NCBI GenBank assembly: GCA_038253225.1
Contig: JBBSHH010000004.1
Coordinates: forward strand, 1 to 50,272
Length of the DNA: 50,272 nt
Reading direction: 5' to 3'
Source of the DNA: Mycobacteriales bacterium
GTDB taxonomy: Bacteria > Actinomycetota > Actinomycetes > JALYNC01
The notes under the pieces were generated by a model that was not told the DNA's origin, searched no databases, and saw only the letters and a list, made by a program, of their open reading frames with translations. Below, in pieces: positions 24,646 through 42,872 of the stretch (its first letter is position 1; every line of letters begins with the position of its first letter). A program made the translations under genes and the position numbers.

Positions 24646-26121
24646 TCAGGCCGGTCCGATCAGCTCGGCGACGATCGCCGCGGACAGCGTGACCAGCGGG
24701 AGTCCGCCGCCGGGGTGCGCCGAGCCGCCGACCAGGTAGAACCCCGGGACCGGCGATCGGTTCGCGGGCCGCAGGAACGCGGCTCGGGCTCCGTTCGAGG
24801 ACGTGCCGTAGATCGCCCCGCCCGGTGACCAGGTGTCGCGCTCGAGGTCGGCCGGCGTCCGGATCTCCCGGAACAGCAGCCGGTCGCGGACGTCGTAACC
24901 CCGGTCGGCGAGCAGGTCCAGCAGCCGGTCGGCGTAGCGGTCGGCGAGCCCGGGGGCGGCCCAGTCCACCGGCCCGTGGCGGGGGGCGTTGACGAGGACG
25001 AACCACGCCTCGAACCCCTCCGGCCGCACCTCCGGGTCGTCGGGGGCGCTGATGTAGAGCGTGGGGTCCTCGACCGGTCGGTACCGGGGCCCGAACACCG
25101 CGTCGAACTCGGCGTCGTAGTCGGCCGGGAACAGCACCGTGTGGTGCGCCAGCCCGGGGGTCCGGCCGCGGACCGCCAGCATCATCACGAAGCCCGACAG
25201 CGACGGGGTGGCCCGGCGTAGCCGCCGCCGGGCCGCCGCGCCGGCCCCGCCGGGCAGCAGCTCTCCGTAGGTGCGGGCGGCGTCGGCGTTGCTGACCACG
25301 ATGTCGGCGGGAAGCCGCTGCCCGTCGGTGAGGGTGACGCCGGCCACCCGGCCGGCGGCGAGGGTGACCGCCCGGACCGCGGTGCCGGTGCGGATGTCGG
25401 CGCCGCGGGCCGCGGCCCGGTTCGCGACGGCGTCGGCGAGCCGGCGCAGCCCGCCGCGGACGTACCAGGCGCCGAACGTCTGCTCCACGTAGGGCACGGT
25501 GGCGAGCGCCGCGGGTGCCCGCCGCGGGTCCGAGCCGGTGTAGGTGGCGTACCGGTCGAGGAACATTCGTAGTCTGGCGTCGCCCAGGTAGCCCGCGCCG
25601 AGCCCGCGCAGGGTCCGCCACGGGGCCACCGTGCGCAGGTCCGAGAGCCGCAGCGACCGGCGGAGCAGGTCGCCGGGGCCGGTCAAGGCCGACTCGAGGA
25701 ACGGTCGTCGGGTCGCCGACCAGATCGACCCCGCCCGGAGCAGGAAGCGGTCCCAGTCGGCAGCCGCCGCTGGCCCGAGTGCGGCCGACATCGCCGCCCG
25801 GACGTCGGCTGGTCCGGTGCCGGGGACGTCCATCCGGACCCCGTCCGGGAACCGGTAGCGGGCGATCGGATCGACCCTGACCAGCTCGAGCTCCCGCTCG
25901 AGCGGCCGGCCGGTCGTGACGAACAGGTCGCGGAAGACCTGCGGCAGGGTCAGCAGCGACGGTCCGGTGTCGAAGCGGAACCCGTCCCGCTCGAGCAGCC
26001 CGAGCTTGCCGCCGACGACAGGCGCCTGCTCGCAGACCGTGACCGCGTGCCCGAGCCGGGCCAGCCGGGCAGCGGCGGCGAGGCCACCTAGACCGGCGCC
26101 GACGACGACGACCCGGCTCAT
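24646..26121 (-). CDS. CrtI-family carotenoid desaturase (CrtD-like, 3,4-desaturase candidate)
   Basis: I took the ATG at 26121, which overlaps the upstream stop (ATGA). The 310-codon Arg-rich extension in the track is rejected. The FAD fold reads VVVVGAGLGGLAAAARLARLGHAVTVCEQAPVVGGK, and the C-terminus reads GFYLVGGSAHPGGGLPLV. The paralog assignment rests on context only. Confidence 0.75.
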   Translation of the reverse strand: MSRVVVVGAGLGGLAAAARLARLGHAVTVCEQAPVVGGKLGLLERDGFRFDTGPSLLTLPQVFRDLFVTTGRPLERELELVRVDPIARYRFPDGVRMDVPGTGPADVRAAMSAALGPAAAADWDRFLLRAGSIWSATRRPFLESALTGPGDLLRRSLRLSDLRTVAPWRTLRGLGAGYLGDARLRMFLDRYATYTGSDPRRAPAALATVPYVEQTFGAWYVRGGLRRLADAVANRAAARGADIRTGTAVRAVTLAAGRVAGVTLTDGQRLPADIVVSNADAARTYGELLPGGAGAAARRRLRRATPSLSGFVMMLAVRGRTPGLAHHTVLFPADYDAEFDAVFGPRYRPVEDPTLYISAPDDPEVRPEGFEAWFVLVNAPRHGPVDWAAPGLADRYADRLLDLLADRGYDVRDRLLFREIRTPADLERDTWSPGGAIYGTSSNGARAAFLRPANRSPVPGFYLVGGSAHPGGGLPLVTLSAAIVAELIGPA

Positions 26122-27206
26122 CGGACCGGCCGGCCCTTCCACCGCAGGGAACCGCGCCGGCGCAGCACCAGCGACCGGCCGGTGAGCGCGCACAGCATCA
26201 GCACCGACACCGGATGGGCCGCCGCGTCGGGGAACGTCCTTCCGCCGGTACGCCGGGCGGTGACGAGCCGGCCGGCGACCGCCGCGGCGTACCCGACGAT
26301 GCCGGCCCGGCTGCCCCGCAGCGCGGCCACCGGGGGGACGACGTAGAGCACCAGCAGCGCCGCGCAGGCTCCGACCGCGCCGGCCGGGGTGCCGAACCCG
26401 GCCCACAGCGACTTGGTGTACCCGTCGCGCAGCTCCGGCCAGCCGGCGTACATCCGGCAGCTGGCGACCGCGGTGCCGTCGGCGACGGCGCCCCGTAAAC
26501 CCCTTCGTTTGAAGGCCTTCAGCAGCTCGAGGTCGTCGAGGACGGCGGCCCGGACGGCGCCGTGCCCGCCGGTCGCACGGTAGGCCGCGGCGTCGACGGC
26601 GAGCAGCTGGCCGTTCGCGGCCGCCAGCGACGGGCGCGCCGACCGCTCGGCCGCCCGCAGCGGCAGGAACGTCAGCCACGACCACTGCAGCAGCGGCTGG
26701 ACCAGCCGTTCGGTGGCGGTCCCGGCGAGCTGCCGCGGGTACGGGCTGACCAGGTCCAGACCGGCGGCGCGCAGCAGGCCGACCGTGGCGGCGACCCCTG
26801 CCGGCGCGAGCACCACGTCGGCGTCGAGGAAGACCAGGACGGTTCCGGTGGCGGCGTCGGCGAGCTGCTGGCAGGCGTACGGCTTGCCGAGCCAGCCGGG
26901 CGGCAGCGCCCGGCCGGTGTGCAGTCGCAGTCGCGGGTCGCCGGCCCCCACCCGGCGTACGACCTCCGCCGTGCCGTCGGTCGAGCCGTCGTCGAGGACC
27001 AGCACCTCCAGGTCGGGCAGCAGCCGCTGGTCGAGAACCGAGCGCAGGCACGGCCCGACCCGGTGCGCCTCGTCGCGGACCGGCAGCAGCACCGACACCG
27101 GCTCGGCGACCGGCGCCGGCCGGGCCGGCGGCACCCGCAACAGCCGGGCGTTGACCGCCGCGTGCAGGCTGGCCACGGCCGCCCCGGCCGCGCCGGCGCG
27201 GACCAC
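26118..27206 (-). CDS. Family-2 glycosyltransferase (carotenoid glycosyltransferase candidate)
   Basis: A GT-A fold is recognisable (VSVLLPVRDEA..., LVLDDGSTDGT, LVFLDADV), followed by C-terminal TM helices. I assigned the start to the GTG at 27206, 8 nt after the upstream stop; the start is uncertain. Confidence 0.8.
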   Translation of the reverse strand: MVRAGAAGAAVASLHAAVNARLLRVPPARPAPVAEPVSVLLPVRDEAHRVGPCLRSVLDQRLLPDLEVLVLDDGSTDGTAEVVRRVGAGDPRLRLHTGRALPPGWLGKPYACQQLADAATGTVLVFLDADVVLAPAGVAATVGLLRAAGLDLVSPYPRQLAGTATERLVQPLLQWSWLTFLPLRAAERSARPSLAAANGQLLAVDAAAYRATGGHGAVRAAVLDDLELLKAFKRRGLRGAVADGTAVASCRMYAGWPELRDGYTKSLWAGFGTPAGAVGACAALLVLYVVPPVAALRGSRAGIVGYAAAVAGRLVTARRTGGRTFPDAAAHPVSVLMLCALTGRSLVLRRRGSLRWKGRPVR

Positions 27207-27214
27207 GGCCCGGC

Positions 27215-27991
27215 TCAGCGCCGCCACAGCCGCACCGCGAGCGGGACGGCGACGAGCCCCATGCCGAGGCCGCCGGCGAGCGCCACCGCCGGCCGGTGAA
27301 AGAACGCGAGGTTGGCCAGCACGGAGGAGGCGTAGGTCCACAGGTAGAGCGCCAGCGGTACGCCGTCGTCCGCGGCCGGCGCCGCGGCCGGCAGCAGCGC
27401 GGTCAGCCCGGCCATCATGGCCACCGCGGTCAGCGTCCAGCCCAGGAAGTTCGTCAGCGGCACCTCCGGGATGCCGGGGAGCGCGGCGCCGACGTCGGTC
27501 CATCGCCAGTGCCCGGCGGCCACCATCTGCGGGTCGAGGAAGAGGTCCCAGGCCGCCAGCGCCGCGCCGGCGACGAGCGCCCGGGACCACCGGCCGGCGA
27601 CGAGCCGGCGGGCCGCCAGCAGCGCGGGGTAGGCCATCATCGTCCAGGCCAGCGGGATCACCAGCGGAACGCCGAGCAGCCGCGGTCCGAGGGTCGCGGT
27701 GTAGGTGTAGGCGCCGAACGGGACGCCGGTGCGGGTGCCGACCGACTCGACGAGCAGCCCCGTACCGGCGGTCACCGTGACCAGGACAATGGTCCACCGC
27801 CGGCCGCGCCACACCGCGGCGTGGCTCACCGACGCCAGGAAGAACGTGACGACGGTCGCGACCGTGAGGGCGTCCCGGCCGGTTCCGTGCACCCGCGGGT
27901 AGCCGACCTCGAGCAGCACGGTGCCCGCCGCCAGCGTCACGGGGACCGGCCGCCGCCGGGTCCCGGCCGGGGCCGTCGCCGGGACCGTCAT
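27215..27991 (-). CDS. cruF: Carotenoid biosynthesis membrane protein, CruF-type 1',2'-hydratase family
   Basis: The ATG at 27991 overlaps the upstream stop (ATGA). It is a multi-TM protein with family motifs (TGVPFGAYTYTATLGPRLLGVPLVIPLAW, AAWDLFLDPQMVAAGHWRW). Confidence 0.7.
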   Translation of the reverse strand: MTVPATAPAGTRRRPVPVTLAAGTVLLEVGYPRVHGTGRDALTVATVVTFFLASVSHAAVWRGRRWTIVLVTVTAGTGLLVESVGTRTGVPFGAYTYTATLGPRLLGVPLVIPLAWTMMAYPALLAARRLVAGRWSRALVAGAALAAWDLFLDPQMVAAGHWRWTDVGAALPGIPEVPLTNFLGWTLTAVAMMAGLTALLPAAAPAADDGVPLALYLWTYASSVLANLAFFHRPAVALAGGLGMGLVAVPLAVRLWRR

Positions 27992-29601
27992 GGCCGCAAC
28001 TGCCGCAGCCGCCGCAACTGCCGCAGCCGCCCGCCCACCCGGCGCAGCGGGCTCGGGCTGCGGTCGGCGAGCAGCACCCGTGCGGCGCTGCGGCCGCTGG
28101 CACCGAACACCCCGCCACCCGGGTGGGTGGAGGCCCCGGTCAGGTACAGGCCCGGCACCGGCGTGCGGTAGCCGGCCAGCTCGGGCAGCGGTCGCCAGGC
28201 GAACATCGCGTCGAGGCCCATCTCGACGTGCATCACGTTGCCGCGCCGCAGCCCGAGCTCGCGCTCGAGGTCGAGCGGGGTCTGCACGTGCATCGCCTCG
28301 ACGCTGGCAGCGAAACCCGGTGCGGCCGCATCGACGGCCGCGACCAGCTTCTCGCCCTCGCGCTGCCGGATCCCGTCCCAGTCCTCCCCGTTGCTGAGCT
28401 GGTAGGGGTGCCACTGGCCCCAGACCGTGACGTTGTGCCGTCCGGCCGGCGCGAGCGTGTCGTCGAAGGCGCTGAACGTCATGGCCAAGGCCGCCGGCGC
28501 GGCCGGCGGCCGGCCGGCGACGAAGTCACCGTGCGCGCCGCGCAGGAACGTCCGGCTCGGGGCGAGCAGCTGCAGCGCCCGGTAGCTGCGCTCCTGCGCG
28601 GCCGGGTAGCGCGGCAGGTCACGGGTCGCCAGCCGAACCACCATCCCGATGCCGTTGCCGACCCGCACCGCGCTGCGGCCGCGGGCCAGCAGCCGCTGGT
28701 CGCCGAGCAGCTCGAGCGCGGTCAGGACGTGGCAGCCGGCCAGCACCGCGGTCGCGCCGATCCGCTCGCCGCCGGCGGTGAGCACCCCGCTCACCCGGTC
28801 CCCGCGACGGGTGATGCCGGTCACCGCGTCGCCGAGCCGCAGCGTGCCGCCGTACGACGCGAACCGGCGGGCCAGCGCGACCGAGAGCATGCCGGAGCCG
28901 CCGACCGGATGCCCCGGCGGGCGGCGGTGCAGCATGGTGTTCCAGCCGACGAGGTCGGCCGTGGCCACCTCGTGCGTCGGCGGCCCCGACTGGGCACCCA
29001 GCCAGGACAGCGCGGTCTTGAGCCGCTCGGAGTCGAAGTGCGCGTCGAGCAGCGCATCCGCGGGCTGCAGGAACTGCCGGGACAGCTCCAGGCCACCGAG
29101 GCCGGTGGCCTTGCCGACACCCCACAGCGACCGCCCGAGGTTCGCGACGGTCGGCGGGCTCTGGAACGCGCTGAAGATGCGGTCGTTGCGCGCCGCCCAG
29201 TCGGTGACAAAGGCGGCGTAGGCGTCGGCGTCGCGCGCCCCACAGACCGCGGCGATGGAGTCGCAGGTCTCGGCCAGGTCGACCGAGAACGTGATCGCGA
29301 CCTGCTCGTCGGCCACGCCGAACGGTGCGAACCCCCACGGGTCGAGGTCCTGGTAGACCAGGCCGCAGTCGGCCAGCGCGAGGTCCTCCACGATGCCGGT
29401 GTGCCGCACCATGATGTGCGCGGAGGACCCGACGTCCATCCGGTAGCCGGGGAACCGCTCCACTGTCGAGACCGCACCGCCGACGACATCGCGCCGCTCG
29501 ACCACCTCGACGTCGAGGCCGGCGCGGGCCAGGTAGCAGGCGGCGACCAGCGCGTTGTGGCCGGCGCCGACCACCACGACGTCGCGCGATGGGGCGCTCA
29601 T
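27988..29601 (-). CDS. CrtI-family FAD-dependent oxidoreductase (CrtO-type ketolase-like)
   Basis: 537-aa ORF with an FAD fold (VVVVGAGHNALVAACYLARAGLDVEVVERRDVVGGAV) and a C-terminal GLYLTGASTHPGGGVFG motif. It is the third CrtI paralog in the window. The function is inferred from size and context. Confidence 0.65.
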   Translation of the reverse strand: MSAPSRDVVVVGAGHNALVAACYLARAGLDVEVVERRDVVGGAVSTVERFPGYRMDVGSSAHIMVRHTGIVEDLALADCGLVYQDLDPWGFAPFGVADEQVAITFSVDLAETCDSIAAVCGARDADAYAAFVTDWAARNDRIFSAFQSPPTVANLGRSLWGVGKATGLGGLELSRQFLQPADALLDAHFDSERLKTALSWLGAQSGPPTHEVATADLVGWNTMLHRRPPGHPVGGSGMLSVALARRFASYGGTLRLGDAVTGITRRGDRVSGVLTAGGERIGATAVLAGCHVLTALELLGDQRLLARGRSAVRVGNGIGMVVRLATRDLPRYPAAQERSYRALQLLAPSRTFLRGAHGDFVAGRPPAAPAALAMTFSAFDDTLAPAGRHNVTVWGQWHPYQLSNGEDWDGIRQREGEKLVAAVDAAAPGFAASVEAMHVQTPLDLERELGLRRGNVMHVEMGLDAMFAWRPLPELAGYRTPVPGLYLTGASTHPGGGVFGASGRSAARVLLADRSPSPLRRVGGRLRQLRRLRQLRP

Positions 29602-29623
29602 CCGGCTCGAGTCTAGGGAGGGT

Positions 29624-30160
29624 TCAGCCGGTCGCCAGCGGCAGCCGGCTGCCCATCATGCAGTAGGGCTCGGTCATGCCGGGGAAGCAGAACCCGGTGC
29701 GCAGGTCGAGGAACCCGAGCGACCGGTAGAGCCGGCGGGCCCGGGTGTCGGCGTCCGCGGTGGACAGCACCGCGGTCCGCCCCGGCGCGTCGCTGAGCAG
29801 GTCGGTGAGCAGCCGGTGGCCCAGCCCCTGTCCCTGCCGGTCGGGCAGCACGTGGAGCTCGGCGACCTCGAAGGTGGTCGGCATCCACTCCGCCGAGACG
29901 GCCGGCTCCAACGCCCCGGCCACGACGTCGTGCCACCACTGCCCGGGCGCCCCGGGGAAGCCGTAGCCGAACCCGACCAGTGCGTCGGCGTCGACCGCGA
30001 GCAGGGACCGGAACCCGGGGTAGGTCGCGTGCCGCGCCACGATGTCCCGGCGCGGCCGGATGTCCGCCAGGCTCCGGCCCATCGCGAGCCGGTAGACCTC
30101 CAGCGACTCGTCGGCGTAGGGCTCGAAGCCGGACCCGTCGACCCGGCGGATGCCGGTCAC
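29624..30160 (-). CDS. GNAT family N-acetyltransferase
   Basis: The GTG at 30160 overlaps the upstream TAG by 1 nt; the track's longer N-terminal extension is rejected. The acetyl-CoA motif is present (LHVLPDRQGQGLGHRLL ... ARRLYRSLGF). Confidence 0.8.
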   Translation of the reverse strand: MTGIRRVDGSGFEPYADESLEVYRLAMGRSLADIRPRRDIVARHATYPGFRSLLAVDADALVGFGYGFPGAPGQWWHDVVAGALEPAVSAEWMPTTFEVAELHVLPDRQGQGLGHRLLTDLLSDAPGRTAVLSTADADTRARRLYRSLGFLDLRTGFCFPGMTEPYCMMGSRLPLATG

Positions 30161-30846
30161 TACCGGCCCTGCGGCGTTGGTCCGGTCAGGGCGACCGGCT
30201 CCCGGCCGTCGACGGTGCCGTGCGCGGCGACCACGGCGAATCTGGCGAAGAGCTCCTCGGCGTACCAGCGCTCCTCGGTGGTACGCCGGACCGCGACCTG
30301 ATGCGCCGGCCGCCGGTGCGCGAACTCGCGCAGTGCTGCGGCGCTGTCCCAGACGCTGAAGGTGCCCTGCAGCCCCACCGGCGCCTCCCCGACCCCGATG
30401 GCGAGGCGGAGCCCGTCGACCTCGTGCAGGTCGGCCGAGACCGGTGGCACCGCCCGCCAGAACGTGACCGCCTTGCGCGGCGCGATCCGGGCGCGGGTGA
30501 GCGCGGCAACCGGGCCGTCGTGGCGCACCGGCCGGGGGTCGCCGAACGGCTGCCGGCCGGACCAGCGGCCCCGGGACGCCAGCGGCCGCAGCTCGGCCCA
30601 CCACCGTTCGGTCGATATCCGACTCCACGACCGGGACACCGCGGAGTCATCGAAGCCGGCCGCGTCCTGCGCGCTCGCCCAGGTGGCCAGCAGGCCCCAG
30701 CGTCGAGGAGTGACGTCGCGGACGGTGAACGTTTCGCCGTCCCCGGTGCCGAGCAGCTTGGCGAACCGCAACCCGGGCAAGGCGCGCAGTCGAGCCCGGT
30801 CCCGCGCCATCCGCAGCACCGCGGTGCCGACATGCCGGCCGGGCAC
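30160..30846 (-). CDS. CrtA-like (spheroidene monooxygenase family) protein, carotenoid 2-hydroxylase/ketolase candidate
   Basis: 228-aa ORF from the first canonical start (GTG). It resembles CrtA as I recall it (GLRFAKLLGTGDGETF, WGLLATW, LRPLASRGRWSGRQPF). The true N-terminus probably lies further upstream (see findings). Confidence 0.6.
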   Translation of the reverse strand: MPGRHVGTAVLRMARDRARLRALPGLRFAKLLGTGDGETFTVRDVTPRRWGLLATWASAQDAAGFDDSAVSRSWSRISTERWWAELRPLASRGRWSGRQPFGDPRPVRHDGPVAALTRARIAPRKAVTFWRAVPPVSADLHEVDGLRLAIGVGEAPVGLQGTFSVWDSAAALREFAHRRPAHQVAVRRTTEERWYAEELFARFAVVAAHGTVDGREPVALTGPTPQGR

Positions 30847-30905
30847 GCCCCACAGGTGGATGGTGACGGCGCCCGGGACCGGCTCGGTCGGGCCGTCGCG
30901 GGAGG

Positions 30906-31154
30906 TCAGGGCCGGCCCGACCCGGAGGGGGAGGCGGTGGGGGCACCCTTGCCGTACTGCCGGTCGGCATCCTGCTCACCCTGGGCGGCGGTGTCGTCCC
31001 CCACGGTGGTGGTCGGGCCGGGCTCGGAGACCACCCCGTTGCGGGTGACGCTGTCCCCGTTTCCGCCGTTGGCGGCGCAGCCGGCCGCGGCGAGCGGAAG
31101 CAACGTGGCGGCGATGGCGGCGGCGAGGGCGCGAACCGGCGGGCGTGGCGTCAT
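30906..31154 (-). CDS. Small lipoprotein
   Basis: The internal ATG at 31154 gives MTPRPPVRALAAAIAATLLPLAAAGCAANGG, a signal peptide plus lipobox, followed by a low-complexity mature part. It is the first gene of the minus-strand operon. Confidence 0.55.
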   Translation of the reverse strand: MTPRPPVRALAAAIAATLLPLAAAGCAANGGNGDSVTRNGVVSEPGPTTTVGDDTAAQGEQDADRQYGKGAPTASPSGSGRP

Positions 31155-31328
31155 GGCCCCATGCATACCCGATGCCGGCCCTTCGATCAGCGACCGGCCC
31201 GCCGGCGGGCGCAGCGGCTGGCGGTCGCCGGTCACCGGTCACGCCGCCGCGGGCTCGGTGCCGAAGCGACAGCCGTCCCCAGCCGACGTTGACGGACCGT
31301 CCGTACCGGGGTGTACGCTTCCCATCGT

Positions 31329-31344
31329 TCGAACATATGTTCGA
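31329..31344. promoter_or_regulatory. LexA (SOS) box, perfect palindrome TCGAACATATGTTCGA
   Basis: It matches the actinobacterial LexA consensus TCGAAC-N4-GTTCGA exactly. It lies 9 nt downstream of a possible promoter (TTGACG at 31289-31294, 19-nt spacer, TACGCT at 31314-31319), in the divergent region upstream of the DUF6504 gene. Confidence 0.8.
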
Positions 31345-31570
31345 TCAGCCCGCGGCCGCCGCCCTCGCGGACGGTGCCGTAGGCAACCGGCTTCCCGGCC
31401 GGGCCGGCGGACCTCGACCCCTGCCGGGCCGGCCGGGATTCCGGCGCCGGTCCGGGTGGCACGTGGGGAAGCGTCTCACCCGGACCGGCGTCCGTCGCCG
31501 CCTTCCCCCGGCGACTCCGCCGCGGTCTCGACCCGAGGCTGCGGCCCGGAGCGAGCGGGGGGAGCGGCCC

Positions 31571-32005
31571 ATGACACGGCGATACGCCGACGCGGTCGAG
31601 GTGCAGCGGCGGGACGACGCGCCGGCCCAGTTCCTCTGGCGGCGCCGGCTCTACGTCGTGCGGGCGGTGCTCGCCCACTGGTTCGAGGCGGGCGGATGGT
31701 GGCGCGGCGTCGCGGCGGCCTCGGTGTTCGGAGAGAGCACAGCGCCGCCGGCCACCGCCGACCTCGTCCTCGCCCCGATCCCGCCAGCGCCGATGTGGGG
31801 GCAGCGGGCGTGGGGAGAGCCGGCCCCGGACGTCGGTGTCGCGGTCGGGTCCGCTGCCGTCGAGGACCGCGAGCGGGAGTACTGGCGGGTGGAGGCCGGC
31901 ACCGGGCAGGCGGCCGGCACCGGGCAGGCGGCCGGCACCGGGGTCTACGACCTGTGCTTCCACTGGTCCGTCGGCGGTTGGACCGTCGTCCGCGCGATCG
32001 ACTGA
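31571..32005 (+). CDS. DUF6504-like small protein
   Basis: 144 codons from the ATG at 31571, with GGGGGAG 7 nt upstream. The N-terminal motif is AQFLWRRRLYVVRAVLAHW and the C-terminal motif is YWRVEAG...GVYDLCFHWSVGGWTVVRAID. The family name is from memory of similar annotated neighbours of SAV_6107-type HEPN genes. Confidence 0.65.
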   Translation: MTRRYADAVEVQRRDDAPAQFLWRRRLYVVRAVLAHWFEAGGWWRGVAAASVFGESTAPPATADLVLAPIPPAPMWGQRAWGEPAPDVGVAVGSAAVEDREREYWRVEAGTGQAAGTGQAAGTGVYDLCFHWSVGGWTVVRAID

Positions 32006-32014
32006 GGAGAAGTC

Positions 32015-32485
32015 ATGACTCGGCCGATGCTGACCCGGCCCGCGCCCACCGGGGCGATGCCGGCCCGGCCCCGCCGCCCCGCCGCGGCCGCCGGTGCGCT
32101 GCTGGCCGCCGCCCGCCGTGGTCTGATCGAGGCCGCGGGGCTGCCGGCTCCTGGCGAGCGGTACGCCGCCGCGCACCTGGCCGCCCTGCGCACCGCCGCC
32201 GCGGTCCTCGCCGCCCGGGCCCAGCCGGAGACCGCGCCGCCCCGCCGCCGCCGGCCGACGAGCGCCTGGGTGTTGCTCACCGCGGTCGCGCCCGAGCTGG
32301 GGGAGTGGGCCGCGTTCTTCGCCGCCGGCGCGGCCAAGCGGGCGGCCGCCGAGGCGGGGCTGACCGGGGTGGTCACGACCCGGGAGGCCGACGACCTGGT
32401 CCGCGACGTCGAGACGTTTCTCGCCGTCGTCGACACCACGCTCGGGCTGCCCCACCAGCCGGTCCTGACCGGCCGTGCCGGCTGA
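32015..32485 (+). CDS. HEPN domain protein (SAV_6107-like family)
   Basis: 156-aa ORF with GAGGAGA 4 nt upstream of the ATG. It is all-helical and Ala-rich, with an Rx4H motif (R49-YAAA-H54) and a conserved-looking tail (VAPELGEWAAFFAAGAAKRAAAEAG...TREADDLVRDVETFL). Confidence 0.65.
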   Translation: MTRPMLTRPAPTGAMPARPRRPAAAAGALLAAARRGLIEAAGLPAPGERYAAAHLAALRTAAAVLAARAQPETAPPRRRRPTSAWVLLTAVAPELGEWAAFFAAGAAKRAAAEAGLTGVVTTREADDLVRDVETFLAVVDTTLGLPHQPVLTGRAG

Positions 32486-32487
32486 CT

Positions 32488-35400
32488 ATGTCCGACCCCT
32501 TCGTTCACCTCCACGTGGCGTCCGGCTACTCGCTGCGCTACGGCGCCTCCCATCCGCAGGTGCTTGTCCAGCGGGCCGCGGAGCACGGGATGGACACGCT
32601 GGCCCTGACCGACCGGGGCGGTGTGTACGGCGCTGTGAAGTTCGTCCAGGCGTGCTCCACGGCCGGGATCCGGCCGGTGCTCGGTGTCGATCTCGCCGTC
32701 GCCCCGCTCGAGCTCGACGCGCGCCGGTCGACCCCGAGCCGTGGCCCCGGCACCCGCCAGCCGGTTCGGGGCGGTGCTTTCGTCGACCTCGCCTCGGCCC
32801 GGGTGACGGTGCTCGCCCGCGACGTGCGGGGCTGGGCGTCGGTGTGCCGGCTGGTCAGCGCCACCCACCTCACCGGCGAGCGCGGCACGCCGGTGAGCTC
32901 GCTGGACCTCCTCGCCGCGCACGCGGCCGGTGTGTTCGTGCTGCTCGGCCCGGGGTCGGAGGTCGGCCGGGCGCTGGCGGCGCGCCGGCTCGACCTGGCG
33001 CGGGCCCACCTCGACCGCTGGCGCGCCGTCCTCGGTGACGACGTCCTGCTCGAGGTCGTCCATCATCGCGGCGCCGGTGACGCCACCCGGGCGGCCCGGA
33101 TGCTGGGACTGGCCGCGGCCGCCGGGGTCGGGGCGGTGCTCACCAACGCGGTGCGCTACGCCGACCGGGCCGACGCGCCGACCGCCGATGTCCTCGACGC
33201 CGCCCGCCGGCTCGTCGTCCTCGACCCGCGCCACGTCGACCGGACGACGGCGGAGGGTGCCTTGAAGTCCGGCAAGGAGATGGCCGAGGTCGCCGACGAG
33301 GTCGCGACGATGGCCGGCACCGGACCGGCCGGCCGGCGGGAGCTGCTGGCCCGGACCCGGCGCGTCGCCGAGCAGTGCGCGCTGCCGCGCGGCACCGGCG
33401 GGCTCGGCATCGGTGAGATCCACTTCCCCGAGCTCGAGGTGACCGGCGGAGCCGGGTCGCTGGTCGGGTCGGCGGCCGCGGACGCCGTCCTGCGGGAACG
33501 CTGCACGGTCGGGTTCGGCCGGCGCGGGATGCCGGCGTCGGGCGCAGCGCTGCGTCGGCTCGACGCCGAGCTCGAGGTCATCCGTGGCCTGGGCTACCCG
33601 TCGTACTTTCTCACGGTCGGGGACGTCGTCGAGCTCATCAAGAGCATGGGGGTGCGGTGTGCCGCCCGCGGCTCCGGCGCCGGCAGCCTGGTCACCTACC
33701 TGCTGGGGATTTCCGACGTCGACCCGATCGAGCACGGGCTGGTGATGGAGCGGTTTCTCTCGCCGCTGCGGCACGCGCTGCCCGACATCGACATCGACGT
33801 CGAGTCGGCCCGCCGGACCGAGGTCTATACGGCGATCCTCGAGCGGTACGGCGGGGACCGGTGCACCTGCGTGTCGATGATGGACACCTACCGCGCCCGG
33901 CACGCCATCCGCGACGTCGGCGCCGCCCTCGGGCTGCCACCGAACGAGATCGACACCGTGGCCAAGGCGTTTCCGCACATCCGGGCGAGCCAGGTCCGGG
34001 CGGCGCTGCGCGACCTGCCGGAGCTGCAGGTCAGTGGTCTGGGCGCCGGCCGGCTCGACCTGCTGTTCCGTCTCGTCGAGCGGCTGGACGGGCTGCCCCG
34101 CCACATCGCCCTGCATCCGTGCGGGGTGCTGCTCTCCGACACCTCCCTGCTCGACCGCACCGCGGTGGAGGCGAGTTGGCTGGGCTTCCCGATGAGCCAG
34201 TTCGACAAGGACGACGTCGAGGCGCTCGGGCTGCTCAAGCTCGACGTGCTCGGCATCCGGATGCAGTCCGCGATCTCCCATGCCCTGGGGGAGGTGCGCC
34301 GGGTGGACGGCGTCGATGTCGACATCGACCGGATCTCCCGCGCCGACCCGGCGACGTTCGCGCTGGTCCAGTCCACCCGCACGCTCGGGTGCTTCCAGAT
34401 CGAGTCCCCCGGTCAGCGCGAGCTGGTCGGGAAGTTCGCGCCGGAGACGTTCGGCGACCTCATCATCGACATCTCGCTGTTCCGCCCGGGGCCGGTGAAG
34501 AGCGACATGGTCACCCCGTTCCTCGAGGCCCGACAGGGCTGGCGGCGGGTGGAGTACCTGCACCCGGACCTGCAGCCGGTCCTCGAGGAGACCTCTGGTG
34601 TGGTCGTCTTCCACGAGCAGGTGCTGCGGATGGTCTCGATCCTGACCGGTTGCACGTTGGCCGAGGCCGACGAGGTACGACGGGCGCTGGGCGATCCGCT
34701 CGGGCAGCCGGAGGTGCGGGTGTGGTTCGTCCCCGCGGCGCTGGGTCGGGGCTACCACCTCGACATGGTCGAGCGGGTGTGGGAGGTGCTCAAGGCCTTC
34801 GCCTCGTTCGGTTTCTGCAAGGCGCACGCGGCCGCGTTCGCCGTCCCGACCTACCAGTCGGCCTGGCTCAAGGCGCACCATCCGGCGGCGTTCCTCGCCG
34901 GCGTGCTGACCCACGACCCCGGCATGTATCCCAAGCGGCTGATCCTCGACGACGCGCGGCAGTTCGGTATCGCCGTCCTGTCGCTCGACGTCAACCGGTC
35001 CGACGCCGAGTACCGGGTCGAGCGGGTCGGGATCTTCGACGAGCCGCCGCCCGCGATCCTCGACGCCCCCCCACGGGACCGGCCGGCGAACGGCCCGGAC
35101 GCCCGCCGGTACGGCATCCGGCTCGGCCTGGCCGAGGTCAAGGGCAGCACCGACGCGGAGGTGGCCCGGATCATGGCCGGGCGGCCCTATGCCTCGCTGG
35201 CCGACTTCTGGCACCGGGCCGCGGTCTCCCGCCCGATCGCCGAACGGCTCGTCGTGGCCGGCGGCTTCGACGAGATCTACGGTCTGGGCTCGGCCGTGCC
35301 GGTTCGCCGGCGCGGCCAGGTCACCCGCCGCGACCTGCTGCTCCAGGTCGCCGAGCTCGACGCCTGGACCCGGTCCCGCGCGCGGCCGGGACGCCGGGCC

Positions 35401-36210
35401 GCAGCGGGGCAGCGCCCGGGCGCGAACCAGCCGGCCGACGTCCGCACTCTTGCCGCGCGCCAGTCCCAGGCGGCTCGGCCGGTCCAGCCGGTCGACGTCC
35501 AGCTCACCCTCGACCTCGGCGACACCCCGGCCGAGACCCGTCCGTCCGGGCTGCCGGAGATGACCGACGCGGAACGGGTCAGGGCCGAGCTCGACGTCCT
35601 CGGGCTCGACGCCAGCCGGCACGTCATGGACTTCTACGCGCGGTTCCTCTCCGCCGTCGGCATCACCCGGGCGCGCGACCTGGTCCGGTGCCGCAGCCGG
35701 TCCGACGTCCTGGTCGCCGGGGTCAAGGTGGCCACCCAGACACCGCCGATCCGTTCCGGTCGGCGGGTCGTCTTCGTCACGCTCGACGACGCCACCGGCC
35801 CGCTGGACGCGACGTTCTTCGAAGACGCGCAGAGCGGGTACGCCGCGACCCTGTTCCATTCCTGGCTGCTCGTCATCCGCGGCACGATCCGTCGCACCGG
35901 ACCGCGCGGAGTCTCGATGCGGGCCAGCGGCTGCTGGGAGCTCCCCCGGCTGCGGGCGGAGTGGGAGACCGGCGGCCTGCCCGCGGTGTGGACGGCCATG
36001 ACGGCGCCCCCGATCCGGAGCGAGCTCGCGCTGCACGGCGCGGCGGAGAGCCGCTCCACCCGTCCGGTGATGGCCGACCCGCCGCCCGCAGCGCTGGTCT
36101 ATCCGAGCGGGTTCGCGCTCTCGCCGTACGCCGACATCACGCCGGCCGGGGCCGGCAGCGCGCCCCCGCGCCGGCTCTGGCACGCCAGCCCGGGCAGTGC
36201 CGGTGGCTAG
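32488..36210 (+). CDS. dnaE2: C-family DNA polymerase (Pol III alpha homolog), DnaE2-like / error-prone type with degenerate PHP domain
   Basis: 1240 codons from the ATG at 32488, 2 nt after the HEPN stop. The PHP N-terminus reads FVHLHVASGYSLRYGAS...LALTDRGGVYGAVKF. The catalytic palm motifs are intact (LPDIDIDVES, SQFDKDDVEALGLLKLDVLG). An OB-fold is present (VLVAGVKVATQTPPIRSGRRVVFVTLDDATGPLDATFF). There is no long tau-binding C-terminal domain. The subclass (dnaE2 versus a separate paralog) is uncertain. Confidence 0.85.
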   Translation: MSDPFVHLHVASGYSLRYGASHPQVLVQRAAEHGMDTLALTDRGGVYGAVKFVQACSTAGIRPVLGVDLAVAPLELDARRSTPSRGPGTRQPVRGGAFVDLASARVTVLARDVRGWASVCRLVSATHLTGERGTPVSSLDLLAAHAAGVFVLLGPGSEVGRALAARRLDLARAHLDRWRAVLGDDVLLEVVHHRGAGDATRAARMLGLAAAAGVGAVLTNAVRYADRADAPTADVLDAARRLVVLDPRHVDRTTAEGALKSGKEMAEVADEVATMAGTGPAGRRELLARTRRVAEQCALPRGTGGLGIGEIHFPELEVTGGAGSLVGSAAADAVLRERCTVGFGRRGMPASGAALRRLDAELEVIRGLGYPSYFLTVGDVVELIKSMGVRCAARGSGAGSLVTYLLGISDVDPIEHGLVMERFLSPLRHALPDIDIDVESARRTEVYTAILERYGGDRCTCVSMMDTYRARHAIRDVGAALGLPPNEIDTVAKAFPHIRASQVRAALRDLPELQVSGLGAGRLDLLFRLVERLDGLPRHIALHPCGVLLSDTSLLDRTAVEASWLGFPMSQFDKDDVEALGLLKLDVLGIRMQSAISHALGEVRRVDGVDVDIDRISRADPATFALVQSTRTLGCFQIESPGQRELVGKFAPETFGDLIIDISLFRPGPVKSDMVTPFLEARQGWRRVEYLHPDLQPVLEETSGVVVFHEQVLRMVSILTGCTLAEADEVRRALGDPLGQPEVRVWFVPAALGRGYHLDMVERVWEVLKAFASFGFCKAHAAAFAVPTYQSAWLKAHHPAAFLAGVLTHDPGMYPKRLILDDARQFGIAVLSLDVNRSDAEYRVERVGIFDEPPPAILDAPPRDRPANGPDARRYGIRLGLAEVKGSTDAEVARIMAGRPYASLADFWHRAAVSRPIAERLVVAGGFDEIYGLGSAVPVRRRGQVTRRDLLLQVAELDAWTRSRARPGRRAAAGQRPGANQPADVRTLAARQSQAARPVQPVDVQLTLDLGDTPAETRPSGLPEMTDAERVRAELDVLGLDASRHVMDFYARFLSAVGITRARDLVRCRSRSDVLVAGVKVATQTPPIRSGRRVVFVTLDDATGPLDATFFEDAQSGYAATLFHSWLLVIRGTIRRTGPRGVSMRASGCWELPRLRAEWETGGLPAVWTAMTAPPIRSELALHGAAESRSTRPVMADPPPAALVYPSGFALSPYADITPAGAGSAPPRRLWHASPGSAGG

Positions 36211-36315
36211 CGGCGCCGCCGCGGCGCGGCCGCCGTCACTAGGCTGCCGGTGCCGGCGGCCCGGGCCGGCCCACACCGCCCGCACCCGCGTTCACGCCGC
36301 CCGAGGAGGACAGTG

Positions 36316-37080
36316 GTGGACCGCCTGCGGTCCCGCACCTCGGTGCGAACCGCCGTCGTCTGGGAGGTGCTCCGCGCCGCGCTGGCCGAGCAGTTTCCCG
36401 GCTCCGACCCGGCGGCCCCGGCGCCGCTCGACATCCTCGACGCGGGCGGTGGCAGCGGCGGCTTCGCCGTCCCGCTCGCCCAGCTCGACCACCGGGTCAC
36501 CGTCGTCGACCCGAGCCCCGACTCGCTCGCCGCCCTGCGGCGTCGCGCCGCCGAGGCCGGCGTCCGGACGCCGGTGCGGGCGGTGCAGGGCGACTTCGCC
36601 AACCTGCACGTGGTGGTGCCGGCCGCCAGCTACGACGTGGTGCTCTGTCACAGCGTGTTCGAGGTCGTCGAGGACCCCGCGGCGGCGATGGCGGCCGTCA
36701 CGGCTGCGCTACGGCCGGGTGGACTGGTCAGCATCCTGGCCGCGAACCGGACCGCCGCCGTGGTCGGCCGAGCGGTCGCCGGGCACTTCGCGGACGCCCG
36801 TCGCATCCTCACCGACCCCACCGGGCGGTGGGGTGACGGTGACGCGTTGGTGCGCCGGTTCACCGTCGCCGAGGTCGCCGGGCTCGCCGCCGCCGCCGGT
36901 TTGGTGGTCGGCCCGGTCCACGGCATCCGGGTGTTCACCGATCTCGTCCCGGGCGGCCTGCTCGACGCCGACCCGGAGGCCGCCGCGGCGCTGCTGGGTC
37001 TCGAGCACGCCGTCACCGGTCGGTCGGAGTTTCTGGGGCTGGCAACCCAGCTGCACCTGCTCGCCTCGCGGCCACGGTGA
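36316..37080 (+). CDS. Class I SAM-dependent methyltransferase
   Basis: SAM-binding motif I is present (ILDAGGGSGGFAVPLA), with an acidic post-I residue (VTVVDPS). I preferred the GTG at 36316, 5 nt after AGGAGGA, over the track start at 36250. Confidence 0.75.
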   Translation: MDRLRSRTSVRTAVVWEVLRAALAEQFPGSDPAAPAPLDILDAGGGSGGFAVPLAQLDHRVTVVDPSPDSLAALRRRAAEAGVRTPVRAVQGDFANLHVVVPAASYDVVLCHSVFEVVEDPAAAMAAVTAALRPGGLVSILAANRTAAVVGRAVAGHFADARRILTDPTGRWGDGDALVRRFTVAEVAGLAAAAGLVVGPVHGIRVFTDLVPGGLLDADPEAAAALLGLEHAVTGRSEFLGLATQLHLLASRPR

Positions 37081-37083
37081 CCG

Positions 37084-38358
37084 GTGAGCCGGGGCCAGCT
37101 TCGCCCGACCGGTCGCCCGACCGGACCGCCGGGCGACGACACCGGCTGCTACGTGCTGCATGTCGACATGGACGCCTTCTACGCCAGCGTCGAGCTGCGG
37201 TCCCGTCCGGAGCTGCGCGGCCGGCCGGTGATCGTGGGCGGGAGCGGGACCCGGGGCGTGGTGCTCTCGGCGACGTACGAGGCGCGGGCCTTCGGGGTCC
37301 ACAGCGCGATGCCGATGATGCGGGCGCGGCGGATGTGCCCGACTGCCATCGTGCTGCCGCCCCAGTTCGACCGCTACCAGCAGGCCTCGGCGGGCGTCAT
37401 GGAGGTGTTCCGGTCGGTGACGCCGCTGGTCGAACCGATCGCGCTCGACGAGGCGTTCCTCGATGTGCGTGGCGCCCGGCGGCGGCTGGGCGGTCCGGCG
37501 CAGATCGGGGAGTGGGTCCGGGCCCGCATCGCCGACGAGCAGGAGATCACCTGCTCGGTCGGGGTGGCGGCGACGAAGTTCGTCGCGAAGCTGGCGAGCA
37601 CCCGGTGCAAGCCGGACGGCCTGCTGGTCGTCCCGCGCACCGGCGTGGTGGCCTTCTTGCACCCGCTGCCCGTCGGCGCGCTCTGGGGAGTCGGTGAACG
37701 TACCGAGGAGTCGCTGGTCCGGCTCGGGCTGCGGACCGTCGGGGACATCGCGCATACGCCGCTGCGAACCCTGCAGCGGGTGGTCGGGCCGGCCGTCGGG
37801 GAGCACCTCTACGGGTTGGCCTGGGGTCGGGACGAGCGGCGGGTCGTGCCGCACGAACCGGAGAAGAGCATCGGTGCGGAGGAGACGTTCGGCCGCGACG
37901 TCGACGACCCGGCCGTGATCCACCGCGAGCTGCTGCGGCTCAGCGAACGGACGGCCGCGCGGCTGCGGGCGGCCGGGCAGGTCGGCCGCACGGTCAGCAT
38001 CAAGGTCCGGTTCGCCGATTTCACCACGATCACCCGGGCCCGCAGCCTCACCGACGCGACCGACGTCGGTCGCGAGATCTACACGGTCGCGCGATCCCTG
38101 TTCGACGCCCTCGGTCTGCAGCGGGCCCGGCTCCGACTGGTCGGCGTCCGGGTGGAGGGGCTGCGACCGGTGGCCACCACCCCCCGCCAGCTGCTGCTCG
38201 ACGAGCGGCCGCAGGGCTGGCGGGAGGCCGAGCTGGCGGTCGACCGAGCCAGCCGGCGCTTCGGCGCGGGGACGGTCCGACCCGCCGCCCTGGTGCGGTT
38301 CGACGACGACGACGACGCCGCCCCGCCGATGCCCCCCGGACCGCTGCGTCCCGACTGA
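37084..38358 (+). CDS. dinB: DNA polymerase IV (Y-family)
   Basis: 424-aa ORF whose GTG lies 3 nt after the methyltransferase stop. DinB motifs are present (LHVDMDAFYASVE, SATYEARAFGVHSAMP, LDEAFLDV, SVGVAATKFVAKLAS). Confidence 0.9.
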   Translation: MSRGQLRPTGRPTGPPGDDTGCYVLHVDMDAFYASVELRSRPELRGRPVIVGGSGTRGVVLSATYEARAFGVHSAMPMMRARRMCPTAIVLPPQFDRYQQASAGVMEVFRSVTPLVEPIALDEAFLDVRGARRRLGGPAQIGEWVRARIADEQEITCSVGVAATKFVAKLASTRCKPDGLLVVPRTGVVAFLHPLPVGALWGVGERTEESLVRLGLRTVGDIAHTPLRTLQRVVGPAVGEHLYGLAWGRDERRVVPHEPEKSIGAEETFGRDVDDPAVIHRELLRLSERTAARLRAAGQVGRTVSIKVRFADFTTITRARSLTDATDVGREIYTVARSLFDALGLQRARLRLVGVRVEGLRPVATTPRQLLLDERPQGWREAELAVDRASRRFGAGTVRPAALVRFDDDDDAAPPMPPGPLRPD

Positions 38359-38617
38359 TCGTCACGAGGACCCGGCCACGCCCGCTCGCCGACCACGCCC
38401 ACCCTCGCCCGCCCTCGCGCATCGGCCTCGGTGCCTCCGCAGGTTCGCTTTCGGCCCGGTCGGGGAAAGTCGAAACCACCCAGAACCCAGTCCGCCTTTC
38501 GCACTCGCCCGACCCCTCGTATCCTCGAAGGCCTACAACCGTTCGTCGTGGCCCGGCGAATGGGTGTGGTCCGCGTCCGGTCGGAGTGCGGAGGGACCGT
38601 CCCTCGGGAGGAGCGTC

Positions 38618-39007
38618 GTGCCGCTCTCTGAGCACGAGCAGCGCCTGCTCGATCAGATCGAGCGCGCCCTCTACGCCGAGGACCCCAAGTTCGCCACCTC
38701 CGTGCGGGCAACCGACCTTCGCAGCCACTACCGGCGGCGGATCGTCCGCTCGGTCGTGCTGTTCGTGCTGGGTTTCGCCCTGCTCTTCGTCGGCGTGATC
38801 AGCAAGATCGCGCCGGTCGGTGTCGGCGGTTTCCTGGTCATGCTGTTCGCCCTGTTCTGGGGCCTCACCAGCTGGCAGCGGTTGGCGGGGAACAAGGACG
38901 CGCGCACCCCCCGACGCCGGGCCCCGGCCGTCAAGACGCCGCGGGCGTCGGTGATGTCGCGGTTGGAGGAGCGGTGGCGACGTCGCTGGGAGGAACGCGG
39001 CCGCTAG
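38618..39007 (+). CDS. DUF3040 domain membrane protein (Rv2169c-like)
   Basis: I took the GTG at 38618, with GGGAGGAG 5 nt upstream. The typical N-terminus PLSEHEQRLLDQIERALYAEDPKFA is followed by two TM helices. Confidence 0.8.
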   Translation: MPLSEHEQRLLDQIERALYAEDPKFATSVRATDLRSHYRRRIVRSVVLFVLGFALLFVGVISKIAPVGVGGFLVMLFALFWGLTSWQRLAGNKDARTPRRRAPAVKTPRASVMSRLEERWRRRWEERGR

Positions 39008-39018
39008 TCGCCGCCCGC

Positions 39019-39100
39019 TCCTGCTGGTAGCACCGGCTTGCTGGTAGCACCGCTTGCTGGCGGCACCGCTTCCCGGCAGCACCGCTTCCGGGCAGCACCG
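39019..39100. repeat. Degenerate 16-bp tandem repeat, about 5 units (CTTGCTGGTAGCACCG-like)
   Basis: The units are CTTGCTGGTAGCACCG, CTTGCTGGCGGCACCG, CTTCCCGGCAGCACCG and CTTCCGGGCAGCACCG, preceded by a partial unit. The array lies in the convergent intergenic region between the DUF3040 and transglutaminase genes. Confidence 0.7.
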
Positions 39101-39138
39101 CTCGGCTCTGGCGTCAGCCCGCCTGGCCCGGCGGACCC

Positions 39139-41580: not shown

Positions 41581-42872
41581 CGACCGCCTCCGGCGCTTAG
41601 CCGAACCGAGTCGAGGCCCCGGGTGGGGCTGGTCGCCGCGGCCTGCGGCCACACCGAGCCCAGCGTGCTGCCGTGTCGGGCCGTCAGGACCCGCCAGCCG
41701 GCGACCTGCAGCAGCCGGGCGTTCGCGGCGTAGCTCACCTCGGCCTCGGCCCGGGCCCGCGCACCGAGCGTGGCCCACGTCGAGGTGTCGAGCAGCACCG
41801 CGACACCGGAGTTGGCCCCGTGCCGGATCCGGGCGAGCAACTCGGTCTCGTCCGGGTGCAGCAGGCCGAGTACGGCGACGAGCAGACCCTCCCCGCCGGC
41901 GCGGCGGATACCGCCGATGGCGTTGCCCAGCGTGGCGCTTTCCGCCGGCCTGACCACGGCGAGCGAGTCGAGCAGGACCCCCTCGGCGGCCCCGCCGTTG
42001 GTCGCGGTCGGATGCTCGCCGGTCCCGGTGACGAGCCGCACCGCGTAGCCACCGCGGGCCAGGTGCACGCCGATCGACGCCGCGGCGCTCACCGCCCACT
42101 CGAACGACGAGCCGGGGCCGTCCCCGCGGTGGGCGCTCTCGCGAGTGTCGAGCAGCACCGCGGCGCGGCTCTGCCAGGGCTGCTCCTCCCGGCGCACCAT
42201 CAGCTCGCCGTAGCGGGCGGTGGAGCGCCAGTGCACCCGGCGCAGGTCGTCGCCCTGCCGGTACTCGCGGGTGGCGGCGTCGTCCTCGCCGGCACTGGCG
42301 ACCGAGCGGGCACGGCTATCGCCGCCGCCGGCCCAGTCCCCACCGAGCCGCACCGACGGCAGCGGCGTGACCTGCGGGGTCACCACGAGGGTGTCCACCG
42401 CGCTGAACGAGCGGGTCAGCTCGACCAGCCCGAACGGGTCGGTCAGCCGCACCGCGAGCGGGCCGATCCGGTACCGGCCGCGCAGGTCCGACCGGACCGG
42501 GTAGGACACCTCCCGGACCCCGCGCGGCTCCACCCGGTCCAGGACGAACCGCGGTCGACCGCCCAGTACGTAGGGCAGCGTGTCCTCGACCAGCAGCACC
42601 CCGGTCGGCAGCCGGGAGACGTTGTCCAGCCGCAGCACCACGGTCGACGCCCGTCCGGCCGGCACCCGGGCCGGGTCCATCCGGCGGGTGCAGGCCAGCC
42701 GGTAGCGGGTGCGGGAGACGACCGCGAGCGCGACCGCGGGCAGCGCCAGCAGGAACACCCCGACCCGCAGCAGGTCGCGCTGCCCCAGCACGAACGCGCA
42801 GACGGTCGCCGCCGCCCCGGCGGAGAGGAAGCAGCGACCTCGCACGGTCACCCCGGCCAGGGCTTCGCGCAC
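41577..42872 (-). CDS. DUF58 domain protein
   Basis: I took the GTG at 42872, 2 nt after the MoxR stop. Two N-terminal TM helices are followed by the DUF58 signature (TREYRQGDDLRRVHWRSTARYGELMVRREEQP). Confidence 0.85.
   Translation of the reverse strand: MREALAGVTVRGRCFLSAGAAATVCAFVLGQRDLLRVGVFLLALPAVALAVVSRTRYRLACTRRMDPARVPAGRASTVVLRLDNVSRLPTGVLLVEDTLPYVLGGRPRFVLDRVEPRGVREVSYPVRSDLRGRYRIGPLAVRLTDPFGLVELTRSFSAVDTLVVTPQVTPLPSVRLGGDWAGGGDSRARSVASAGEDDAATREYRQGDDLRRVHWRSTARYGELMVRREEQPWQSRAAVLLDTRESAHRGDGPGSSFEWAVSAAASIGVHLARGGYAVRLVTGTGEHPTATNGGAAEGVLLDSLAVVRPAESATLGNAIGGIRRAGGEGLLVAVLGLLHPDETELLARIRHGANSGVAVLLDTSTWATLGARARAEAEVSYAANARLLQVAGWRVLTARHGSTLGSVWPQAAATSPTRGLDSVRLSAGGGR

Follow-up and report, generated by a model that had tools for sequence, protein, structure and literature searches.

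Gene organization of the locus

In this study, we examined a pair of small genes, and the row of genes that they head, in a stretch of 50,272 nucleotides from a Mycobacteriales bacterium (contig JBBSHH010000004.1; the window, below), which is high-GC actinobacterial DNA of soil-metagenome origin. The first gene (31571–32005, + strand; ATG at 31571, TGA at 32005; 144 amino acids) encodes a DUF6504 protein, assigned below as a stand-alone ImuB-C, and is preceded by GGGGGGAG, a Shine-Dalgarno sequence at 31557–31564. The second (32015–32485, + strand; ATG at 32015, TGA at 32485; 156 amino acids) encodes a HEPN_SAV_6107 protein (127 bits in Pfam) and is set off from the first by a 9-nt spacer, GGAGAAGTC, with a GGAG Shine-Dalgarno inside it. 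A polymerase gene (32488–36210, + strand; 1240 amino acids) begins with an ATG at 32488, 2 nt past the HEPN stop codon TGA at 32485, and by its Pfam and NCBIfam domains encodes an error-prone C-family DNA polymerase of the DnaE2B type. Genes for a class I S-adenosylmethionine (SAM)-dependent methyltransferase (36250–37080, + strand; 276 amino acids; Pfam Methyltransf_11/25/12) and a DinB-type Y-family polymerase (Pol IV; 37084–38358, + strand; Pfam IMS and IMS_C, NCBIfam Pol IV) complete the row. The four gaps between these five genes measure 9, 2, 39 and 3 nt, and a scan of 30800–38800 found no terminator-like site.

This layout agrees with an earlier reading of the DNA (the sequence-only reading), which had described two small genes 9 nt apart, the second with its own Shine-Dalgarno, next to a DNA polymerase at a 2-nt gap: the open reading frames (ORFs) and the GGAG are read directly in the sequence, the polymerase starts at 32488, and its polymerase domains are found by Pfam. 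The genes, and a string R49-x4-H54 in the HEPN protein on which that reading had leaned, are real and far beyond chance, because both proteins match Pfam families and R49 and H54 are conserved among homologues.

SOS box, putative promoter and leader RNA

A LexA (SOS) box, TCGAACATATGTTCGA (31329–31344, given no strand), lies upstream of the first gene, 9 nt downstream of a TACGCT hexamer resembling a −10 element; the window has no other perfect TCGAAC-N4-GTTCGA. Its conservation was assessed in 80 loci from species-representative genomes, found by peptide patterns from the window HEPN protein and including Frankiaceae, Geodermatophilaceae, Pseudonocardiaceae, Kribbellaceae, Propionibacteriales, Micromonosporaceae and Acidothermaceae; counts of SOS boxes and of DUF6504 genes refer to the 74 loci with enough upstream sequence, and counts of polymerase partners to the 68 with at least 4.5 kb downstream. 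Upstream of the first gene, 69 of 74 loci have a perfect box and 3 more a box with a single mismatch, which strongly bears out the earlier proposal of a link between the gene pair and the SOS response. In Streptomyces venezuelae, LexA binds sites of this consensus, and dnaE2-dinP there shows 30-fold induction (PMC9380542).

A putative promoter (31289–31319, + strand) consists of the −35 hexamer TTGACG (31289–31294) and the −10 hexamer TACGCT (31314–31319). Blocks of the form TTGAC and TAnnnT recur in the related loci at a fixed 8–11 nt upstream of the SOS box, and a generic sigma-70 scan did not report the site. From this conserved arrangement we infer that 31289–31319 acts as a promoter, from which the five genes would be transcribed as one operon under LexA control. 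The promoter spacer of 32 of 76 relatives also carries a motif, TGTC(G/A)G(T/C)G-N8-TAnnnT, of which the window has a copy with three mismatches, CGTCCGTA. Gamulin et al. reportedly described this motif in 2004 as that of RecA-independent, PafBC-dependent damage promoters, and its presence would suggest dual control.

The stretch from the SOS box to the first gene is itself conserved among related loci and holds a structured leader RNA (31442–31516, + strand), made up of a hairpin (31443–31492) with its loop at 31465–31471 and a C-rich tract at 31502–31508. The stem of the hairpin is freely variable while the loop, GGGGAAG, is invariant. Compensatory changes occur at 13 of the 14 stem pairs across 29 loci, with many G-U pairs; 88% of stem cells are paired, against 44–55% when the pairing is slid, and none of 500 shuffles reached the observed covariation score. 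A covariance model built on the hairpin gave 33 matches in 934 kb, all on the + strand and all in this leader, including five sequences outside the training set and several loci without DUF6504. The hairpin accompanies HEPN with or without DUF6504 or a polymerase (examples are L054, L062, L075, L078, L014 and L047). Rfam 15 holds no family for the leader, returning only chance microRNA-like matches far under threshold.

The C-rich tract, CUUCCCC (31502–31508), is complementary to the GGGGAAG loop (82% paired); covariation between loop and tract is impossible because the loop is invariant. The tract is also complementary to the Shine-Dalgarno sequence of the first gene, GGGGGGAG, with which it pairs in the minimum-free-energy fold of 31440–31580 (z = −6.5). 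A switch in which loop, anti-Shine-Dalgarno tract and Shine-Dalgarno compete is therefore a reasonable hypothesis, and such an operon-specific structured leader, which is new, suggests a layer of post-transcriptional control on top of LexA.

The DUF6504 protein and the two polymerases

The first protein matches Pfam DUF6504 (PF20114; E 4.5e-14, 53 bits, cut-off 24.2) and, by BLASTP, the Tessaracoccus lapidicaptus protein VEP41449 (E 2e-11, 30% identity), an ImuB-C by the labelling of PMC12926913, whose supplement gives the sequence. VEP41449 in turn matches DUF6504 (1.2e-13). On the strength of these matches, the DUF6504 protein is assigned as a stand-alone ImuB-C, the putative polymerase adaptor of a DnaE2B-PolY-ImuB-C-RecA mutasome. 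Mutasomes of this kind, confined to actinobacteria, are centred on a stand-alone homologue of the C-terminal beta-barrel of ImuB, and published models have the ImuB-C barrel docked to the DnaE2 PHP domain (PMC12926913).

The kinship of stand-alone ImuB-C to the ImuB C-terminus rests on published PSI-BLAST and hidden Markov model searches. In our hands, an hhalign comparison of DUF6504 with the ImuB C-termini from five loci and two published stand-alone ImuB-C proteins was collinear, with pairwise E and P values of only 0.008–0.13, which are not significant and come from shallow alignments; an iterative search over all ORFs of the loci, started from DUF6504, did not recruit the ImuB C-termini. 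An AlphaFold2 (AF2) model of the DUF6504 protein has a beta-rich core of strands in residues 2–39 and 102–143, at a predicted local distance difference test (pLDDT) score of about 90, with a long disordered insert between the strands. Foldseek found no match to this model in the Protein Data Bank (PDB) at a probability above 0.13, and the small ImuB-C beta-barrel is likewise without a PDB relative in PMC12926913. Sequence searches of both small proteins against PDB chains gave nothing meaningful, and NCBIfam has no match for either.

Two further features of the gene may be recorded here. Within the disordered insert, residues 76–87 (31796–31831) form a peptide that is invariant in this ImuB-C subfamily, W-x-Q-R-A-W-G-E-P-A-P-D, which is missing from the shorter Tessaracoccus and Pseudonocardia forms and looks like a short linear binding motif. 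Tandem Repeats Finder further reports, within the gene (31894–31942, + strand), an 18-bp tandem repeat that is perfect over its 2.7 copies and codes for GTGQAA units in the variable loop of the protein, of which homologues have a single copy.

The polymerase encoded by the third gene has the Pfam domains PHP, DNA_pol3_alpha, finger, HHH_6 and OB. Over its N-terminal 400 amino acids it is 52% identical to DnaE2B of T. lapidicaptus and 47% identical to DnaE2B of Streptomyces alboniger. Its identity to the canonical, imuB-linked DnaE2 of three related loci (L027, L047, L072) is no more than about 32%, and in NCBIfam it scores below the cut-offs of the replicative model and of the "error-prone" model alike. 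The DinB protein scores 408 bits against NCBIfam Pol IV (cut-off 367), is 56% identical to PolY of the T. lapidicaptus system and has intact catalytic motifs (DMDAFYASVE, DEAF) and an intact C-terminal RFG motif. By these comparisons the two polymerases are orthologues of DnaE2B and PolY; neither imuA' nor imuB occurs in the 50-kb window. Judged by its gene content, the operon is a variant of the actinobacterial DnaE2B-PolY-ImuB-C mutasome operon, to which a HEPN gene and a specific leader RNA are added.

Family, fold and conserved residues of the HEPN protein

The second protein matches Pfam HEPN_SAV_6107 (PF18726) at E 3.2e-37 (127.4 bits, cut-off 27.2), its residues 40–139 covering profile positions 1–97 of 98. 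At 50% identity the family divides into 955 clusters; looking up the exact window protein gave no record. AF2 predicts a four-helix bundle (pLDDT 87.6) with helices at 21–42, 46–68, 84–113 (kinked) and 122–142, and an Arg-rich loop between helices 2 and 3 (69–83; the Arg-rich part is also given as 72–83). The best Foldseek matches of this model in the PDB are HEPN proteins, aligned collinearly (2hsb, with a TM score of 0.61, 3o10, 1wol, 1ufb and 8xeh). These matches are all weak, with E > 0.1, and designed helical bundles score about alike; HEPN-MNT toxins are also among the weak matches.

The sequence-only reading had taken the string R49-x4-H54 for the Rx4-6H signature that forms the RNase active site of many HEPN proteins. 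The string E48-R49-Y50-A-A-A-H54 is indeed present, and the check on homologues proposed in that reading came out in favour of its conservation: among 150 representatives of 50%-identity clusters, position 49 is Arg in 95% and position 54 is His in 93% (Tyr in 5%), and both residues are invariant across 59 closer homologues, as are many other Arg residues of the protein. The identification with the catalytic signature did not stand, as the string lies in the first turns of helix 2, at its N-terminus in the AF2 model, and not at the canonical HEPN site. The Rx4-6H site of catalytic HEPN RNases is at the junction of helices 3 and 4, and the SAV_6107 family was scored "No" for it in the census of Anantharaman et al. 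2013 (PMC3710099). In the window protein this place, located from the AF2 model and the collinear fold matches, would be taken by R109, conserved in 98%, followed by AAAEAG and no His. On this modelled placement, HEPN_SAV_6107 appears to be without the Rx4-6H motif at its canonical position.

Most of the invariant polar residues, namely R49, Y50, H54, R109, E113, R123, D126, D127 and R130, probably lie at one pole of the bundle. In several lineages the change H54Y is nearly always paired with Y50F, and one subclade has jointly lost H54, R123, E124, D126 and D127. This pairing and this joint loss suggest that residues 50, 54 and 123–127 (window 32162–32395) form one coupled site. Given the topology of the bundle, together with the joint loss, R49 and H54 probably cluster in space with R109 and with R123, D126 and D127. 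Natural replacement of H54 by Tyr argues for a binding or structural role rather than acid-base catalysis.

Two longer relatives, P0314 and P0315, have an N-terminal hydrophobic segment and a common C-terminal extension, …ENQDTGAAVRHLS.GFD.LF.ALGPPPPG….

Genomic partners and the toxin-antitoxin hypothesis

Comparison of the related loci shows what travels with the HEPN gene. A DUF6504 gene is found directly upstream of it in 56 of 74 loci by iterative search, with gaps mostly between −4 and +15 nt. DnaE2B follows HEPN directly in 20 of 68 loci (median gap 7 nt), DinB occurs without DnaE2B in 13, and a canonical imuA'-imuB-dnaE2 cassette accompanies HEPN in 4 of the tallied loci, or 5 of all 80. 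In three of these five the order is SOS box, (DUF6504), HEPN, imuA', imuB, dnaE2 (L047, 1675–6334; L033, 1507–6747; L059, 5202–12093); in the other two, L027 and L072, the cassette is just upstream of HEPN. Because its neighbours vary in this way across loci, the constant unit is the SOS box with HEPN, and ImuB-C is the most frequent partner. Three kinds of polymerase set are frequent beside HEPN and none is obligatory. The link of the gene pair to translesion synthesis (TLS) polymerases, which had been proposed earlier, is thereby upheld, with DnaE2B and DinB in the window and three TLS gene sets among its relatives. Most related loci also have a homologue of the methyltransferase downstream of HEPN, and many of these are without any polymerase gene.

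These data bear directly on the proposal that the pair is a toxin-antitoxin (TA) module, in which HEPN would be an RNase toxin and DUF6504 its neutraliser, the SOS-induced module arresting growth while the polymerases act. Such a module is suggested by two small, tightly coupled genes in the usual order of antitoxin then toxin, by a HEPN fold with conserved Arg and His residues, and by the precedent of an SOS-controlled TA pair in a TLS operon, dinB-yafNOP of E. coli. PADLOC adds only a weak match to PDC-M05B, a candidate defence protein (E 1.3e-3). Against it, the supposed antidote matches a polymerase-docking ImuB-C domain. The further premise, that HEPN needs a neutralising DUF6504 partner, fails on the 18 of 74 loci that have HEPN, with its conserved residues and the same perfect SOS box, and no DUF6504. 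In these 18 loci R49, R109, R123, D126 and D127 are each kept in 18 of 18 and H54 in 14 of 18, with Tyr in the others, and at least 14 of the 18 have no room for an extra gene between SOS box and HEPN.

Other properties of the gene point the same way. The canonical Rx4-6H motif is absent; the HEPN proteins are highly conserved, at 50–75% identity across several actinobacterial families; and the gene is present as one copy per locus, in a chromosomal position whose flanking genes are the same in related contigs. A tblastn search of HEPN against 72,556 plasmids gave no match. Among 270 HEPN homologues there was no DUF6504-HEPN fusion protein, and the long N-termini seen in this set look like low-complexity sequence or miscalled starts. 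We therefore consider the TA reading unsupported, on the grounds that DUF6504 is a polymerase adaptor, that HEPN occurs without it in 18 of 74 loci, that no plasmid copies were found and that the locus is syntenic, and we regard a toxin function as very improbable. Calling a toxin takes more than a HEPN label and an R-x4-H string. Nor would an SOS-controlled toxin beside a TLS polymerase have been the new biology that was claimed for it, given the E. coli dinB-yafN-yafO-yafP precedent.

Proposed role of the HEPN protein in the SOS response

Taken together, these results lead us to read the region as the promoter-proximal stretch of an operon of five genes that is repressed by LexA and serves damage-induced, error-prone DNA synthesis, and in which HEPN would be a non-toxic accessory or regulatory factor of the SOS response. 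We hold this reading tentatively, at a little short of an even chance. Upon DNA damage, LexA would leave the perfect SOS box, 9 nt downstream of the −10 element, and a leader of about 220 nt would be transcribed, with its GGGGAAG hairpin and a C-rich tract that could pair either with the loop or with the first Shine-Dalgarno. Coupled translation would then yield ImuB-C (DUF6504), HEPN_SAV_6107, DnaE2B, the SAM methyltransferase and a presumably active DinB-type PolY. ImuB-C would serve as the small beta-barrel adaptor, and HEPN as an additional, non-toxic SOS factor that has lost the canonical HEPN histidine and kept the polar pole and the Arg-rich loop. It might bind nucleic acid or a shared partner and so assist, or restrain, translesion synthesis. 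The sequence-only reading had also offered, beside the toxin, a HEPN fold recruited as a polymerase accessory factor, and this would be the better of its two ideas.

Several observations weigh against this reading. No TLS polymerase gene is present within 6 kb of HEPN in 31 of 68 loci. In S. venezuelae the SOS box of dnaE2-dinP lies directly upstream of dnaE2, with no HEPN there and a DUF3533 gene as the divergent neighbour. The ImuB-C, DnaE2B and PolY proteins of T. lapidicaptus have consecutive accession numbers, from which a HEPN-free operon is likely. Since nearly half of the loci are without a TLS gene nearby and DnaE2B systems exist without an adjacent HEPN, a direct partnership of HEPN with a polymerase is not obligatory. 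Further, an enzyme would also be compatible with the strong conservation of several acidic residues and of the Arg/His pair, and the 80 loci, at 48–78% identity to the window HEPN protein, represent closer relatives only and are a partial sample of the family.

Some of these observations lend weight to a different explanation, in which HEPN is an RNA-binding protein or RNase that is induced in the SOS response and whose action on RNA does not involve the polymerases; on this view, HEPN and the TLS genes would have a promoter in common only as members of the LexA regulon. HEPN might, for example, feed back on its own operon through the GGGGAAG hairpin, or clear or silence transcripts in the damage response. 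The constancy of SOS box and HEPN, together with the 31 of 68 loci without a nearby polymerase gene, is what such a factor would predict, and the leader hairpin accompanies HEPN regardless of DUF6504 or polymerase. The HEPN-like fold, the Arg-rich loop 72–83 with many invariant Arg residues, and the 98% conservation of the canonical R109 fit RNA as a target, as does the fact that some HEPN families use a His from elsewhere in the protein (PMC3710099). On the other side, natural clades in which Tyr replaces H54 together with Y50F speak for a hydrogen-bonded structural pair more than for a general acid or base, HEPN is tightly coupled to DnaE2B in translation, and it recurs beside three different TLS gene sets. 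We consider this independent RNA factor possible and, on balance, unlikely. We rank a non-toxic accessory or regulator of TLS first, an independent SOS RNA factor second and a toxin last.

A more specific idea joins the leader to the protein: HEPN might be an RNA-directed component of SOS mutagenesis that recognises, and perhaps cleaves, the GGGGAAG hairpin or pseudoknot of its own leader by means of a relocated HEPN active site formed of the canonical R109 and of R49/H54 on helix 2. This is a long shot. If true, it would mean post-transcriptional feedback on the timing of error-prone polymerase synthesis, or an RNA tethered to the mutasome.

Other features of the window

Upstream of the operon, 26118–30846 holds genes for a carotenoid-type oxidoreductase, a glycosyltransferase and a GNAT protein, and downstream of it, 38564–42099 holds a DUF3040 gene, a TgpA-like transglutaminase gene, a DUF58 gene and a MoxR-type AAA gene; both flanks are syntenic with related contigs. 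Two Rfam matches score above the gathering threshold, a TPP riboswitch (14083–14173, − strand) and an mraW RNA motif (44672–44778, + strand), the latter of which we take as a marker for the start of the cell-division (dcw) gene cluster.

Comparison with known systems

The composition of mutasomes outside mycobacteria is known only from comparative genomics, and in the comparative literature on ImuB-C and DnaE2 operons (PMC12926913, PMC6511836, PMC3765255, including the supplements examined) HEPN goes unmentioned. In the literature that we searched, the only naming of SAV_6107 is one table row of the 2013 HEPN census (PMC3710099), DUF6504 is not mentioned by that name, and we found no link of HEPN to imuB or to the actinobacterial SOS response. 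What is new is a HEPN-fold gene that heads three error-prone polymerase sets and that, in over 90% of the related genomes studied, is preceded by a perfect LexA operator.

With HEPN-MNT type II TA systems the window shares a two-gene unit whose second gene codes for a small HEPN-fold protein. In contrast to these systems, the pair has neither an MNT partner nor Rx4-6H at the junction of helices 3 and 4, and its genes are not mobile and are probably LexA-controlled. The dinB-yafN-yafO-yafP operon of E. coli (PMC2814082, PMC3105422) is similar in that LexA controls the joint transcription of small accessory genes and a TLS polymerase gene. However, YafNO is a RelE-type mRNA-interferase TA pair of variable presence, whereas the pair in the window consists of ImuB-C and a HEPN protein with a degenerate canonical site; this pair keeps a syntenic position in many actinobacterial lineages, and HEPN often occurs where the supposed antidote is missing.

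The mycobacterial ImuA'-ImuB-DnaE2 mutasome comes closer, being likewise a LexA-controlled, multi-subunit system with an error-prone C-family polymerase and an ImuB-C beta-barrel adaptor, and the same HEPN gene heads or directly follows such a cassette in 5 related loci. Unlike that system, the window has ImuB-C as a separate protein, a Y-family partner predicted from its motifs to be catalytically intact, and a polymerase of the DnaE2B type, about 32% identical to imuB-linked DnaE2. The closest known relative is the DnaE2B-PolY-[ImuB-C]-RecA mutasome (PMC12926913, 2026; earlier PMC6511836, PMC3765255), an SOS-linked system that, as in the window, brings ImuB-C, DnaE2B and an active PolY together in one operon; the T. 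lapidicaptus proteins are 30%, 52% and 56% identical to the window's ImuB-C, DnaE2B and PolY, respectively. The published complex is a computational model with no HEPN subunit, and the window operon differs from this system in two additional genes, that of HEPN_SAV_6107 between ImuB-C and DnaE2B and that of the SAM methyltransferase before PolY.

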